A stretch of 64,000 bases of DNA. It comes from a phage. The notes beneath the pieces were generated by a model. The model did not search any database and was not told the origin of the DNA. It was given only the letters and a program-made list of their open reading frames with translations. The position numbers were made by a program, and so were the translations under genes. Below, piece by piece: positions 7,588-34,230 of the stretch (the stretch's first letter is position 1; each line of letters opens with the position of its first letter). The stretch lies in sequence record PQ724392.1; one strand, given 5' to 3'.

Positions 7588-8616
7588 CTAAACTTTTGCG
7601 TACTTCGAAAGTCGCATTCTCGCCATCAACCCTTGAGCAACGTTATCGGCCATATATGATTCGATTTGTTCAGGGGTTGCGCCCTCCGATTTAACCATCT
7701 CATTTATGTCTTTCGTATGCCATGGTGCATTGTCCCAGAACATAACGGCTTCACCCGCTTCAACGAGCTTCTTCATACGTTTAATCGTATCCGGATGTCT
7801 TGGCTCGTTGTCCATTACCCATACTCGGGTTTCAGCATAAGGAACGGCTTCCAATGCTAATGTTCCACCAGTTATCGCAATGCTGTTAGGGATAAACAAA
7901 CTATCAATCGGACCTTCCATTACCCACACGCGCTTGCGCTCATCAATCTTGTCTACGCCATAGACTTTGGAAGCTTCTGGGTGAGCTTTGATTGTGATAT
8001 ATTTTTGTGGTGCATCTTTGCGAAGAGCTCGTCCTTGGAAAGATTCGATTTCTTTTTTGCCGTTGAAGATAGGAATAACCAAGCGTGGTTCATTCGTTTC
8101 ATTCTTATACGTCCCAGGATTAACGGAGTTAACTAATGCAGGCCATTTGTTTGTAAACCATAACCGGTTCCAAACATTGCTCGGAATACACCGACTTTTT
8201 ACATACTTAACTATCGGATGCGCTTCTGGTAAAGTATCGATTCTTTCGCAAAAAGCAAGCTCTTCAATAACCGGAGTTTTTTCTTGTTCTTTCGGAGCTT
8301 CTGCAACTTCATTACGTTGTCGACCGAAGGCGTTTTCCTTGTACTTCTCAACCATATATTCCCGGTGCAAATCCGGCTCAAACTCTTTTATGTATTTGCT
8401 TATATGCGTGGAGTAGTCACAGTTAAAACATTTCACGTAAACCGCACCATCAGATGGATTGGTATACGCCCAGAATCGAGCCTTGTGTGAATCTTTCTGG
8501 GAGTCACCACAAACCTTACAACGACAGTTTGCCTTAAATGTGCTCCCGGTGACTTCTCTGTAACGTGGTTGATACGATAAAGCTTTGACTGCAAATTCTC
8601 TATCAATATATGACAT
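7588..8616 (-). CDS. 61: DNA primase gp61
   Basis: 342 aa (T4 gp61 size); zinc-ribbon CRCKVCGD...CFNCDY; position between 56 and 41. Confidence 0.85.
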   Translation of the reverse strand: MSYIDREFAVKALSYQPRYREVTGSTFKANCRCKVCGDSQKDSHKARFWAYTNPSDGAVYVKCFNCDYSTHISKYIKEFEPDLHREYMVEKYKENAFGRQRNEVAEAPKEQEKTPVIEELAFCERIDTLPEAHPIVKYVKSRCIPSNVWNRLWFTNKWPALVNSVNPGTYKNETNEPRLVIPIFNGKKEIESFQGRALRKDAPQKYITIKAHPEASKVYGVDKIDERKRVWVMEGPIDSLFIPNSIAITGGTLALEAVPYAETRVWVMDNEPRHPDTIKRMKKLVEAGEAVMFWDNAPWHTKDINEMVKSEGATPEQIESYMADNVAQGLMARMRLSKYAKV

Positions 8617-8646
8617 AGTTTCCTCATTTCAATGGCCTCGGAGGAC

Positions 8647-8814
8647 CATTATACTGTAGGTTTATCGTCTTTATTCTTACGCTTTTTTGATGGGATTTGT
8701 TCAGGGCCTTTATTGACAACTGCCCCGGAAGTGGTACCTGTTGCGATATTAGTTGGGTTTCCACCTGCATCACCGGCAACCATATCTTCATTGATAAAAT
8801 CTTTGAATGTTTTC
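8647..8814 (-). CDS. small Gly-rich protein with CTS-like N-terminus
   Basis: 55-aa frame translated by hand: MKTFKDFINEDMVAGDAGGNP...; below ORF-track size cut-off. Confidence 0.3.
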
Positions 8815-8835
8815 ATAACACCCCCTTTCCGCTAT

Positions 8836-9027
8836 TTATACAATGAAGATAGCTTTATTGCCATTTGCATCAGTCACTTCATAGGTGTCTTCATGATACA
8901 ACGGAATAATCCAGGTAACACCATCATCAGCGATAACATGGATTGCTTCTTGGTCTTGCGACACGATTTCATATTCTTCAAAAATCTGGAAGACCGAAAT
9001 CTTAGAGCCCGTACACATTGCAGTCAT
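8836..9027 (-). CDS. hypothetical protein
   Basis: 63-aa ORF co-oriented. Confidence 0.35.
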   Translation of the reverse strand: MTAMCTGSKISVFQIFEEYEIVSQDQEAIHVIADDGVTWIIPLYHEDTYEVTDANGNKAIFIV

Positions 9028-9028
9028 A

Positions 9029-9388
9029 TTAACCTCGCTTCATGAAGGCATTAAAAATCTGGTCATCAATATCAGTAGGCAGTTCTTGAGCTTTAACCCA
9101 AGCCCCTTCCAGAATGTCATTTGCTTCAGTAGATATCATGACCCCAATTTCAGGGTTTCCGGTTATCCATGCTGCACAATCGCGTACATTCTTTTTATCA
9201 AATGGATAGCCACGAGTATCTTCATAAGGTCCACTCATTACCATAAATGAGCGAGCCTTTATAATAACATCATCTTTAACGATAATATAACCAATCGCCT
9301 GATTAAACCGAGGCTCACGAAATTCATAACGGGCATTACCATTATTATTGCTCACCAGTTCAAAATTCAGAAAATTATAATAACTCAT
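9029..9388 (-). CDS. hypothetical protein
   Basis: 119-aa ORF; C-terminus DDQIFNAFMKRG shared with next ORF. Confidence 0.4.
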   Translation of the reverse strand: MSYYNFLNFELVSNNNGNARYEFREPRFNQAIGYIIVKDDVIIKARSFMVMSGPYEDTRGYPFDKKNVRDCAAWITGNPEIGVMISTEANDILEGAWVKAQELPTDIDDQIFNAFMKRG

Positions 9389-9389
9389 A

Positions 9390-9830
9390 TTAATCTCGCT
9401 TCATGAAGGCATTAAAAATTTGGTCGTCAACTGAATATACAGGGGTTTCCAGAAGTTTCAAAAGACTGTTTTTAATGTACTTACCCGGGATACCCATATT
9501 AACAATACTGTCATTCAATTCATTATCAGGGTTGATGTCTTTAAATTCAAACCCATCAAATTCAACCTTGTCAGGAATACCATCAGCGAAAAAATAAACC
9601 AATTGGTGCATTGTATTGCGCGAAAATAATTTAGACTTGACCGCAATAAGTTCTTGCCAATGGTTTAATTCTTTGTTAAGAAGTTTATGAGCAAACGTAA
9701 TTCTATTATCACTATCAACAAGAAAATAACCCAGGTATTGAATGGGGTCGTCGCTCCAAAACATCCTGTATGCTTGTGCATTTTGATTTTTACAACGAAG
9801 TTTTTTGATAACTAAATTTCTGTTAATCAT
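9390..9830 (-). CDS. hypothetical protein
   Basis: Start moved to internal Met (MINRNL...) to avoid overlap with sp-like gene; C-terminus DDQIFNAFMKRD. Confidence 0.4.
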   Translation of the reverse strand: MINRNLVIKKLRCKNQNAQAYRMFWSDDPIQYLGYFLVDSDNRITFAHKLLNKELNHWQELIAVKSKLFSRNTMHQLVYFFADGIPDKVEFDGFEFKDINPDNELNDSIVNMGIPGKYIKNSLLKLLETPVYSVDDQIFNAFMKRD

Positions 9831-9831
9831 T

Positions 9832-10125
9832 TTATTCACCTGTAACCCATTGAACAATTTTGCTATTGTCAAATGAAGCATCGCAATACAGAACATAGTT
9901 ATACTGCATAACGCCACCAGAAGTCAATTGGTCAGATACTTCTTTAACCATATCAGGGCGGTCACGTTTAGTTATGTTCATGATATCAGCATAAATCTGG
10001 TGTTCAACATCAGTCTGGTCAGCAGTCATAGACCACTCACAAAGGTCTTTATCAAGTCCAGCGGTGACAGGTGCTGTGCCACAAGATGCTACGGCAAAAA
10101 TTGCTGCGATAATTAACTTTTTCAT
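9832..10125 (-). CDS. sp: Spackle-like secreted protein
   Basis: 97 aa (T4 Sp size) with N-terminal signal peptide and VASC lipobox-like motif; position between 61 and 41. Confidence 0.45.
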   Translation of the reverse strand: MKKLIIAAIFAVASCGTAPVTAGLDKDLCEWSMTADQTDVEHQIYADIMNITKRDRPDMVKEVSDQLTSGGVMQYNYVLYCDASFDNSKIVQWVTGE

Positions 10126-10184
10126 AATGTTCTCCTCAGTAGTTGATAAGGATAATATACTGCATTATTCCCTTATTGTACACT
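10126..10184 (-). promoter_or_regulatory. early promoter cassette (-35 GTGTAC, -10 TATATT, conserved leader)
   Basis: GTGTAC-N18-TATATT then ATCCTTATCAACTACTGAGGAGAA before ATG. Confidence 0.45.
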
Positions 10185-10525
10185 TATTTTTCACCTTCAA
10201 CTGAAAAACCGGTCAAGTTGTAATATTCAGCACGTGCAATATGAAGAGCTGCTTCAATATCAGTAAGGCAGATTTCTTCATTTAACAGTTGCGCTTCAAC
10301 GGTCAAAATCAGATTACGCAATGCGGTACCCTTACGCATGTCTACTTTATGAATTAGCTTGTCATCAACAAAAGCTTCAACCAGCGCATTATAGTTATCA
10401 GCAGTCTTCTGGACATACCAGTGAATACCTGCGGGGTGGAACATGCTAGAACGTTCAAAAGATGGTACACCAACAGCACTCACTTTGATTGTTACTTTTA
10501 CGCGGTCTTCTGGATTAAAATCCAT
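10184..10525 (-). CDS. Dmd-like domain protein with C-terminal extension
   Basis: 113 aa; shares NALVEAFVDD block with adjacent Dmd-like ORF. Confidence 0.4.
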   Translation of the reverse strand: MDFNPEDRVKVTIKVSAVGVPSFERSSMFHPAGIHWYVQKTADNYNALVEAFVDDKLIHKVDMRKGTALRNLILTVEAQLLNEEICLTDIEAALHIARAEYYNLTGFSVEGEK

Positions 10526-10738
10526 TTAGATTTCCTCAGATAAGTGGATGCGATAATCATATTCAAAAACTTTATTGTCATTAACAAAGGCTTTCACCAG
10601 CGCATTATTCACTTCCGCATACTGCACTGTAACCCATTCAATCATATTTTGGTCACTAACATCCAACATGGTTTCTTTGGTAAACATATTACCATTTTCA
10701 AACCAACCAATAAATACTACGTTCTCTAATTTATACAT
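10526..10738 (-). CDS. dmd: Dmd-like antitoxin (discriminator of mRNA degradation)
   Basis: 70 aa; VVFIGWFENGNMFTKE ... YAEVNNALVKAFVND resembles remembered T4 Dmd; position next to gene 41. Confidence 0.5.
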   Translation of the reverse strand: MYKLENVVFIGWFENGNMFTKETMLDVSDQNMIEWVTVQYAEVNNALVKAFVNDNKVFEYDYRIHLSEEI

Positions 10739-11056: not shown

Positions 11057-11095
11057 TTTATTCTCCAGTAGTTGATAGGGTCATTATAACATAAG
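11057..11095 (-). promoter_or_regulatory. early promoter (-10 TATAAT, conserved leader)
   Basis: CTTACA-N17-TATAAT then GACCCTATCAACTACTGGAGAATAAA before ATG. Confidence 0.45.
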
Positions 11096-11120
11096 AAAAA
11101 GGGGCTGTAAGCCCCTTTTA
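11096..11120 (-). terminator. stem-loop terminator after gene 41
   Basis: GGGGCTTACAGCCCC hairpin followed by TTTTT on gene-sense strand. Confidence 0.5.
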
Positions 11121-11127
11121 AAATATT

Positions 11128-12567
11128 TTAAAATTTCATTTGAGCAGCAAGGTCGTCCAGGTCGCTCCTGTTGACCCTGGTTTGTCGATTCATTTCAGCC
11201 TGGCGATTCATCTCACCGGTGGCTTCTTTAACCGTAGGACCTTGTTTAGGAGCTGAATCATCATCAACCTCATACCAGCGCTGATTACCTTTCTTAACAC
11301 CCATCTTGAATTTATTATAGTAGTTCTTATCACCATAACGAGACTTAAGCTGTTTGATTAACTGCAGCCCCATTTGAGCGAATTCTTCGGTCTCAACAAC
11401 ACCCAACATAAAGTCAGCTGTATGAGCAATACCAAAGGATTCTGCGATATCAGCCATATCAATCTCAGCTGCAACGTTCGCGCCCCTGGTTGTCTGCGCT
11501 GCAGTCCACAGGACCACATTTTTCTCGACTGCCAGACCACGAAGTTCTTCTGCAACCATCTTAATCAGACCGTAACTATTTTCGGTAAACGTTTTCAGTC
11601 TTGAGCTCGCACAGATTGCCAGGTAGTCAACAATAATCACATCCGGCACAAACCCTTGCTTCAGCTTGTACTCGTTCAGTAATGCACGGAAGGTGTCCGC
11701 ATGAGCACCGCCAGTTGGATATTGTTTTATTTTCAGAGTCCCAAGAGTCCCGGAAGCACGCCATTTTTCCATCTTAGCTTTATATTCTGCCCATGATATA
11801 TGACCTTCATCAATATCATCCAGAGACACATCCAGCAAGTTGGCATCAATACGTTTGGCACATACTTCTTCGGCCATTTCCATGCTTATATAAAGCACGT
11901 TATGACCAGTCTGAAGATAGTCAGCGGCTAACGAACAAAGTCCTAGAGATTTCCCGACGTTGGTCCCAGCCAGTAAAACGTTTTCTGTACCATACTCAAC
12001 TCCACCCTTCGTGATTTTATTCAGGATGTTAATGCGGAACGGAACCTTTTTCGATTTGTTCAGATAAGTCTGGAATCGAGCTTCGTAATCGTTTAACCAG
12101 TCATGGCCCAGTGCAGAGTCAAAACAGATGGACAATGCATCACGCATGATGTCAGGGATAGCACCGATATCCGGGATTCGTTTATCACGTTTATCTTTCG
12201 GAAGTTCGGCATTACTCTGGATTTCGATAATCCTGGATGTGGCATTGAACATCGCAGACTTCTGTACATACTTCTCGGTTTCTCTGACCAACCATTCCTG
12301 GTCTTCTGGAGTATCGGCCAGGACTCCTAAGAGTTTCTTTGTGCCTTCGTATTCAACTTCAGAAAGGTCAGAACTGTCGAGCGCGATATCAAGTGCAGTC
12401 TTAGTTGGCACCGCCTGATATTCTTTTACGTGTTCGTTAATCGTATTAAAAAGGGTCTTCGCTGGACCCTTTTCAAAATATGTGCTATTCAGATATGGCC
12501 AGACTTTAACAAAATATTCCTTGTTAAAGAGTAGCTGGGATAAAATAGTTTCTACCACTTCCACCAC
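11128..12567 (-). CDS. 41: replicative DNA helicase gp41 (DnaB-like)
   Basis: 479 aa; Walker A GTNVGKS; T4 synteny between 61 and uvsX. Confidence 0.9.
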   Translation of the reverse strand: MVEVVETILSQLLFNKEYFVKVWPYLNSTYFEKGPAKTLFNTINEHVKEYQAVPTKTALDIALDSSDLSEVEYEGTKKLLGVLADTPEDQEWLVRETEKYVQKSAMFNATSRIIEIQSNAELPKDKRDKRIPDIGAIPDIMRDALSICFDSALGHDWLNDYEARFQTYLNKSKKVPFRINILNKITKGGVEYGTENVLLAGTNVGKSLGLCSLAADYLQTGHNVLYISMEMAEEVCAKRIDANLLDVSLDDIDEGHISWAEYKAKMEKWRASGTLGTLKIKQYPTGGAHADTFRALLNEYKLKQGFVPDVIIVDYLAICASSRLKTFTENSYGLIKMVAEELRGLAVEKNVVLWTAAQTTRGANVAAEIDMADIAESFGIAHTADFMLGVVETEEFAQMGLQLIKQLKSRYGDKNYYNKFKMGVKKGNQRWYEVDDDSAPKQGPTVKEATGEMNRQAEMNRQTRVNRSDLDDLAAQMKF

Positions 12568-33592: not shown

Positions 33593-33897
33593 TGGTCACT
33601 CCAATAGCTTGATACTTCAAAATCAGGCTCGCCGTCGTCCCAGTACCAGGGACCCACCGGATGCCAATCGCCATGCTTATCTTCTTCATATTCTATAGAT
33701 TCAAGCCCAACGTATTGCCATTGGACTTCATAAGCAGTACCGCCGATTACAACAGTGTTCTCACCATACGGGTTAGCCACAGCAAAGTCAATACCTTCTT
33801 CCTTTGCCAGGGCGACCATGTATTCGTATAGTTTATATTCCAGGTCGTCTTCGTTGCCATCGCCCAGATAAATTGTTTGTCCGTCTAATTCACTCAT
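33589..33897 (-). CDS. hypothetical acidic protein
   Basis: 102-aa ORF, stop overlaps next start. Confidence 0.35.
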   Translation of the reverse strand: MSELDGQTIYLGDGNEDDLEYKLYEYMVALAKEEGIDFAVANPYGENTVVIGGTAYEVQWQYVGLESIEYEEDKHGDWHPVGPWYWDDGEPDFEVSSYWSDQ

Positions 33898-34230
33898 AAT
33901 TCCACCATAAATTCAAATAACTGGTCGCGTACACAAGTATCAGTCCAACCCCATTCGTTGGCTTCTTCTTTTAACCAATCCGGGAGATTTGCCAATACGG
34001 TTTCTTTACTAGGCGCAGGAGTATCAAACTCTCTTGCGCAGGTTTTATAGGCCATATCAAATTCGGTCATTTAAAGTTCCAGAATGAAGCACCAACCAGA
34101 AATAAAGGCCAACAAATCATAGACGTCAGCCACCAGCAAAAGTCACCTGCACCGAAATCATCTAATTTAGCTAGGGTCTTAGCATAACCAATACCGATGA
34201 TAAGATACAAAATACCCAACAATAATTCAA

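Follow-up and report, generated by a model that had tools for sequence, protein, structure and literature searches.

Two adjacent early genes in the adfA slot of a T4-like phage share a near-identical C-terminal tail and are probably diverged AdfA-family paralogues

The window, that is the whole stretch of DNA analysed (64,000 nucleotides), comes from a T4-like phage. Its closest relatives, identified by megablast of positions 8600-10200 (86 phage records found), are TH54, TH15 and SP18 of the genus Gaprivervirus. The genes of the region lie on the minus strand in the order 41, a 105-aa gene, dmd, a 113-aa gene, sp, gene A, gene B, a 63-aa gene, 61.1 and 61, with gp41 encoded at 11128-12567 and the gp61 primase at 7588-8616. 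Gene A (9390..9830, 146 aa, phrog_8539; its ATG at 9830 agrees with the annotated SP18gp036) and gene B (9029..9388, 119 aa, phrog_4122) occupy a variable slot whose conserved left border is sp (spackle, 9832..10125) and whose right border is the 61.1 homologue (8649..8816). The 63-aa gene (8836..9027, phrog_3249) follows gene B. In T4 this slot holds 61.2, which is adfA (anti-DarT factor A). The position of the slot, downstream of sp and upstream of 61.1/61, is kept in the window, T4, T6, T2, RB18, SP18 and VR26, and two divergent metagenomic phages each carry one member of 120 or 125 aa in the same sp-61.1 slot.

The neighbourhood including dmd, tifA/61.4 and adfA has been proposed to form an "anti-toxin-antitoxin island" (PMC9391042). 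Two Dmd-related genes stand in tandem on the minus strand at 10184-10525 and 10526-10738: one is the 70-aa dmd (PF17587, E 4e-20) and the other the 113-aa gene (phrog_23762), in which residues 34-64 show a weak similarity to Dmd (E 1.7e-3). They may correspond to another diverged tandem pair in the same island. Just downstream of gene 41, a PeSL-like element (11083-11119, minus strand) includes the stem-loop AAAAGGGGCTTACAGCCCCTTTT with a -35-like CTTACA in the loop and TG-TATAAT 17 nt later. It is probably a terminator and early promoter heading the dmd-sp-A-B-61 block.

A direct-repeat search of the A-B region delimits a 46-nt repeat at 9024-9069 and 9385-9430, with 43 of 46 positions identical (93%) and a spacing of 361 nt, one base more than the length of gene B. 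On the coding strand, both copies read GAY GAC CAR ATT TTT AAT GCC TTC ATG AAG CGA G(G/A)T TAA T ATG A. In each, the last 12 codons of a gene, DDQIFNAFMKR(G/D), are followed by the stop, a single base and the ATG with which the next gene begins; the stretch that runs past the stop and takes in the downstream ATG is TAATATGA. Copy 1 (9024..9069, minus strand) covers the C-terminus of gene B (DDQIFNAFMKRG, 9032-9067) together with one more common codon position, the stop TAA at 9029-9031, a Shine-Dalgarno GAGG (CCTC on the plus strand, 9033-9036) and the ATG(A) of the 63-aa gene (9027-9024), the RBS and start codon of that gene both lying within the copy. Copy 2 (9385..9430, minus strand) covers the C-terminus of gene A (DDQIFNAFMKRD) and its stop TAA at 9390-9392. 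The Shine-Dalgarno is weaker in this copy, reading GAGA (9394-9397), and the ATG(A) at 9388-9385 is that of gene B. The first of the three mismatches (9033/9394, GGT vs GAT) changes the last residue, Gly or Asp, and the other two are synonymous (9059/9420, CAG vs CAA; 9065/9426, GAT vs GAC).

The 40-nt core, with up to three mismatches allowed, is found at two sites in the 64-kb window and at none in 100 dinucleotide shuffles, and degenerate back-translation of DQIFNAFM identifies only the same two sites within the window. A 56-nt query spanning the junction matches 754 places in 557 phage records. About one third of these records must therefore carry two copies, and the repeat is not an assembly artefact. 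The same arrangement is also present in the independently sequenced TH54, TH15, SP18, VR20, VR25, EAWsc9 and RB18. The idea that the repeat reflects chance, or an artefact of assembly or duplication, has nothing in its favour beyond the AT-rich sequence; its probability is close to nil and the comparative data have already refuted it. The initial annotation had described a near-identical segment at the 3' ends of adjacent genes and the same C-terminus DDQIFNAFMKR(G/D) on both proteins. Both are borne out by the alignment, the shuffles and the translations, and the tail and junction recur in related phages, as it had proposed to check. The repeat is however 5 nt longer than noted and extends beyond the stop codon, so that the downstream ATG is included.

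Three weaker resemblances and candidates accompany the repeat. A third, degenerate and in-frame match (30/46) lies within sp at 9962-10007 on the minus strand, where residues VEHQIYADIMNITKRD align with IDDQIFNAFMKRG and its stop. It is the sole other site of the 64-kb window with at least 27/46 (binomial expectation of about 0.006 per window) and may be a coincidence or an old relic. A 58-aa ORF at 33894-34070 (minus strand), which ends in CVRDQLFEFMVEL, loosely resembles DDQIFNAFM with another spacing, probably by chance. Antisense ORFs starting from the ATG in the palindrome CTTCATGAAG were discarded: they span 15 aa in copy 1 and 64 aa in copy 2, and their lengths are not conserved.

At the protein level, the tail is a signature located at the extreme C-terminus, DDQIFNAFM(N/K)(R/K)(G/D), present in A, B and T4 gp61.2. 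The latter ends in SIDDQIFNAFMNRG at its stop codon and runs into the TAATATG of 61.1, and in both T4 and T2 the tail is directly followed by 61.1. The comparison drew on about 30 loci and 65 protein clusters. Every one of the 65 representatives, fragments excepted, ends in the tail, and their bodies share less than 25% identity. The only changes in DDQIFNAFM among them are two Asp-to-Glu and one Met-to-Leu, the latter in a fragment. Synonymous variants occur at seven of the eight degenerate codons of DDQIFNAF (both Asp, Gln, Ile, Asn, Ala and the second Phe), and the RB69 tail codons, as given by primer sequences, differ again (PMC11257639). Since the codons vary and the residues do not, the peptide is under strong purifying selection. 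The linker preceding the tail varies in length and sequence. AF2 gives the tail helix of B (residues 106-116) a pLDDT of about 52-55 vs about 90 for the body, and the sequence places the tail Ile, Phe, Phe and Met on one helix face. From these predicted features we infer that the tail may be a tethered, amphipathic helix whose role is constant, the bodies giving specificity. The initial annotation had considered a shared interaction tail. This stands as regards functional constraint (invariant peptide, synonymous codons) but not as root cause, the tail being the signature of the AdfA family. T4-type sliding-clamp-binding tails (gp55/gp33/gp43 type) carry a C-terminal (S/T)LDFL(F/Y)-like motif. 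A clamp-binding or PIP-like tail was rejected here: DDQIFNAFMKRG does not fit the motif, and the 185-aa gp55-like ORF of the window ends differently.

Gene B is related to AdfA beyond the tail. Against the AdfA profile PF23813 it scores 21.5 bits, below the Pfam gathering threshold (27 bits), with the tail only as its best stretch: the last 17 residues (103-119) match the end of the profile (positions 195-211). The 118-aa proteins of T2 and RB18, hereafter B', pass this cutoff (32.5 and 34.1 bits), their residues 22-118 aligning with profile positions 113-211; protein P0014 passes it too. Gene B and T2 B' are 46% identical (E 3e-27). When the last 14 residues were cut from every sequence, the B profile matched the C-half of AdfA (residues 108-169, hhalign E 9.8e-5) and, more weakly, the N-half (residues 33-73, E 7.4e-4). 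These hhalign comparisons were not significant with shallow alignments and gained significance with deeper ones. Body homology outside the tail therefore holds for B, both from the identity with the T2 member and from the tail-less comparison. The matches to both halves suggest that AdfA contains two such modules where B has a single one, so that gene B is a single-module AdfA-family protein with a variable linker before the tail helix. That B-type genes resemble gp61.2 had been flagged earlier by annotators, and it is already known that B' forms lie inside the AdfA family of Pfam.

The AF2 model of B (pLDDT 81) is composed of four strands, a short strand pair, a helix, a strand and a helix, followed by the tail helix. 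In a Foldseek search of BFVD with this model, the group of B itself is followed by the A-type protein of VR25 (E 1.3e-4, TM 0.56) and a 212-aa protein (E 9.4e-4), scores that the identical tail may inflate. A structure search found no solved structure like the B model, and NCBIfam yielded no match. A word-indexed search with B alone retrieved eight close relatives only, and a full HMMER scan family members only, plus a spurious repetitive 447-aa protein (P0067).

The relationship of gene A is more remote. It gives no hit against PF23813, and its JS98-type counterpart scores 16.3 bits with the tail only. BLASTP of A against B aligns nothing but the last 27 residues. The tail-less A profile nevertheless matches a merged profile of B and the AdfA C-terminal module with a score of 25.1 (E 8.4e-4), residues 20-47 of A falling on residues 19-45 of B. 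The match is short (about 28 columns); none of 200 column permutations reached its score (mean 11.6, sd 2.2, maximum 19.9). The AF2 model of A, of a confidence too low to support a fold search (pLDDT 53), has the same order of elements as the B model. These profile and model comparisons suggest that gene A is probably a remote AdfA-family paralogue. The earlier statement that the rest of the two proteins differs therefore holds at the BLASTP level but not at the profile and fold level.

A scan of IMG/VR with a degenerate tail pattern, completed with further loci, identified three body types ending in the tail. The AdfA type (208-216 aa) is found in T4, T6 and RB69-like phages, and type A (144-148 aa) in JS98-like phages and the group of the window; B/B' is the third. 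With tail-less bodies, tblastn detects 487 phage records carrying AdfA, 333 with B/B' and 86 with A, the last including SP18 and the JS98-like JS10, Bp7 and QL01. RB18 has the order sp, AdfA, B', 61.1, a two-tail tandem in which the annotation of the second gene reads "some similarity to gp61.2", and in T2 B' is alone in the slot. Searching 5.8 billion proteins with a profile of the three types returned only members of the AdfA, A and B groups. As far as this search reaches, the tail does not occur as a portable module on other proteins.

Gene content within the slot changes at the tail junctions. SP18 and UPEC01 have sp, A, B, a 73-aa gene, the 63-aa gene and 61.1; EAWsc9 and the window have the same order without the 73-aa gene, and VR26 (sp, A, 73-aa gene, 63-aa gene, 61.1) is without B. 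The gap of VR26 in a multiple alignment spans 9390 to 9030 of the window, exactly one repeat period (gene B), as recombination between the direct repeats would produce. The extra 73-aa gene of SP18 and UPEC01 begins exactly at 9030, and the far end of this indel has only AATATG in common with the tail junction. Overall, the same tail has four different genes downstream of it and three body types upstream. A mosaic patch can also be observed at the start of gene B, where the first 16 or so codons of EAWsc9 (locus L002, 2310-2360, MYIQSDLSYLNFELVK) and of the window (9340-9388, MSYYNFLNFELVS) differ sharply. Both flanks of the patch are near-identical and it begins at the A-tail junction.

Tail DNA clusters by phage lineage and not by gene type. 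Both tails of SP18-like phages have GCC, TTC, AAG (Lys) and CGA in common, and both tails of T4-like phages GCT, TTT, AAT (Asn) and the rare AGA. The two tails of RB18 differ by 1 nt and both contain the rare AGA codon, and the B' tail in a T4-like backbone is identical to the T4 AdfA tail at 45 of 45 positions. The B tail of UPEC01 and VR20 has also taken on the "SV" that stands before the A tail ("SVDDQ"), and B is two residues shorter. As recombination between microhomologies of 6-10 bp is documented in T4 (PMC9391042) and the tails follow the genome that carries them, gene conversion or crossover within the tail would account for this pattern. The codon sharing within genomes, from which this is inferred, concerns few sites and few independent lineages, and co-evolution with a partner could be an alternative to conversion for the N to K change common to both tails. 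In T2 (locus L027, 1417-1431), the sequence TTAGAGGTTAGTATG (TAGAGGTTAGTATG) located between sp and the sole AdfA-family gene resembles the tail end AGAGGTTAATATG, which looks like the trace of a long adfA deleted from an AdfA+B' ancestor.

Such observations could be taken to mean that A and B are unrelated proteins that acquired their 3' end through crossover at the junction, the peptide being a functionless by-product. Indels delimited by the junction, varied upstream and downstream partners, tail DNA that tracks the phage backbone and the lack of BLASTP similarity outside the tail are all consistent with pure module exchange of this type. We nevertheless regard it as improbable: tail-less bodies still match each other and AdfA, the order of secondary structures is common to the models and a Foldseek match was obtained, and no non-family protein with the tail was returned from the 5.8 billion sequences, within the limits of the search. 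In addition, a functionless by-product would not show an invariant peptide despite many synonymous changes. The exchange of modules at a conserved junction, as suggested by the initial annotation, is thus supported by the junction-exact indels, the varied partners and the lineage grouping of tail DNA, with the correction that it involves probable tandem paralogues and not unrelated proteins.

The end of the tail also carries translation signals. The sequence (C/A)GAGGTTAATATG, made up of the last two codons and the stop, would supply the next gene with both its Shine-Dalgarno site and its start codon, GAGG standing 5 nt before the ATG. In two-tail tandems, the upstream tail ends with RD or KG before the stop, and the GAGG preceding the B-type gene is spoiled: CGAGAT in the window (9393-9398), AGAGAT in RB18 and AAAGGT in locus L021. 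GAGGT (RG before the stop) is retained where a copy is single or last in the array, at 9032-9037 in the window. This asymmetry, of which locus L022 (2175-2190) is one example, is common to Gaprivervirus and Tequatrovirus. The spoiled site may adjust how well B is translated, or it may simply accompany the B cassette as a passenger. In a divergent metagenomic relative (locus L026, 3368-3389), a 9-nt tandem duplication, AGAGGCTAA AGAGGCTAA, at the junction between the tail and the next gene doubles the last codons, the Shine-Dalgarno and the stop codon. A promoter-like TTGAAA-16-TATATT (10/12) lies directly upstream of the A tail at 9434-9461 (minus strand), in a region which overall contains about twice as many promoter-like matches as its shuffles. 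If this promoter were active, the gene B mRNA would have the tail as its 5' leader. A structured RNA at the junction was considered and rejected: the folds are no better than those of shuffles and differ between copies.

These signals raise the question of whether conservation acts mainly on RNA or DNA (translational coupling, an RBS hairpin, a 5' UTR or a promoter), the peptide being secondary. The GAGG formed by the last two codons 5 nt before the ATG, the spoiled Shine-Dalgarno (GAGAT or AAAGGT) of tandem upstream copies and the promoter-like sequence just upstream of the A tail would fit this explanation. However, the RBS accounts for the last 5-6 nt only, third-codon positions are free to vary while residues are fixed, and junction RNA folds no better than shuffles (z = 0.47, 1.56 and -0.43), with no common structure. 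Conservation mainly at the RNA or DNA level is therefore highly improbable.

We consider it likely that A and B are AdfA-family paralogues, arranged in tandem and strongly diverged, that the tail is the C-terminal signature of this family and that three constraints keep its DNA near-identical. Both genes would end alike because both are diverged copies of adfA, the root cause being tandem paralogy. The signature would consist of a flexible linker followed by the amphipathic helix DDQIFNAFM(K/N)(R/K)(G/D). The first constraint is the purifying selection that the codon comparison reveals. The second is suggested by the sequence of the junction itself, where the tail-end codons would double as Shine-Dalgarno and start of the next gene. 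The third, to which the lineage-specific codon patterns point, would be gene conversion or homologous recombination between copies. Recombination at the tail junction might also delete, insert and swap cassettes. With respect to function, the variable body could determine target specificity and the constant tail could contact a conserved toxin surface or a common partner. A and B may thus represent further inhibitors of toxins or defence systems with other specificities.

What is established for AdfA itself frames these proposals. Neutralisation of DarT1, an ADP-ribosyltransferase toxin, is known only for the RB69 AdfA(R164H) and T4 alleles. Whether the toxin is bound is decided by residue 164 (His164 being required), and the protein has no known fold or mechanism (PMC11257639). 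Deletion of T4 adfA gave no DarTG1 phenotype (PMC11257639), which leaves the natural targets of the family uncertain. A bolder and only tentative extension of the paralogy reading is that the tail represents the constant, tethered docking or effector helix of a hypervariable family of toxin inhibitors. Its coding DNA, with the RBS and start, would then constitute a built-in recombination site for stacking, swapping and deleting cassettes, and phages said to lack adfA (T2 and the JS98/SP18-related A-type phages) would carry short paralogues directed against other DarT variants or defence toxins.

T2 has been described as a phage that "naturally lacks an adfA homolog" (PMC11825919). The family appears larger than the literature treats it, with single-module relatives in the slot of T2 and in JS98/SP18-related A-type phages. 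To our knowledge, the presence of single-module A, B and B' in the adfA slot of phages reported without adfA is new to the literature, as apparently are the 12-residue tail as the only invariant part of the family, the tail DNA fused to an RBS as a recurrent boundary of indels and recombination, and the concerted evolution of tandem tails. AdfA is among the few experimentally studied phage inhibitors of toxin-antitoxin defence. The sole invariant part of its family, a predicted 12-residue tethered helix, is an obvious first target for mutagenesis or pull-down. The DNA coding for this helix, as a natural crossover point, could explain diversification of the anti-toxin island. No current view is overturned by this analysis, which supplies testable candidates and a defined motif. 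If the extended reading is true, T-even phages would use the tail DNA as a coding-sequence counterpart of PeSLs.

Among known systems, the closest is AdfA itself (T4 61.2; PF23813; phrog_3781), which shares with A and B the slot, the invariant C-terminal tail and the stop/RBS/ATG junction. Its C-terminal module is homologous to the B body and probably to the A body. It differs in having two modules in 208-216 aa, an architecture of about 210 aa that is absent in A (146 aa) and B (119 aa), which have one module each and remain below the Pfam cutoff. Residue 164 and its surroundings, involved in DarT1 binding, are not conserved in A and B. The 118-aa proteins of RB32 (RB32ORF033c), wV7 and T2 (phrog_4122, "some similarity to gp61.2") belong to the subfamily of B, with 43-47% full-length identity. 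They carry the same tail and are found alone (T2) or right after AdfA (RB18), in the same two-tail tandem as A-B. Unlike B, they are located on Tequatrovirus backbones, have the T4-type tail codons GCT TTT AAT AGA and follow AdfA instead of an A-type gene.

In T4-type modular shuffling, PeSL cassettes (promoter-early stem-loops; PMC2839356, PMC4122927) resemble the tail repeat in being short, conserved and located at gene borders, and in both cases insertions, deletions and replacements begin and end there within hyperplastic regions. However, PeSLs are intergenic terminator/promoter motifs whereas the tail repeat is coding, without stem-loop and confined to one locus. The PeSL hallmark, an intergenic stem-loop terminator overlapping an early promoter, is absent from the tail junctions, where there is no terminator-like site. 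Amplification and deletion in the dmd-tifA "anti-TA island" (PMC9391042) concern the same neighbourhood, and there too short direct repeats change the copy number of counter-defence genes. Those events involved chance microhomologies of 6-10 bp during laboratory evolution, while the tail is a selected 46-nt repeat of natural isolates.

A constant motif bordering a hypervariable specificity part is, finally, not restricted to this locus. The VENN motif of the CdiA toxin borders a hypervariable specificity domain in this way. The glycine-rich motifs of gp38 adhesins (PMC3157838), like the tail, border a hypervariable specificity domain and provide homology for swapping. In gp38 and CdiA the variable part is C-terminal to the motif, whereas here the constant part is itself the extreme C-terminus and carries the RBS of the next gene.
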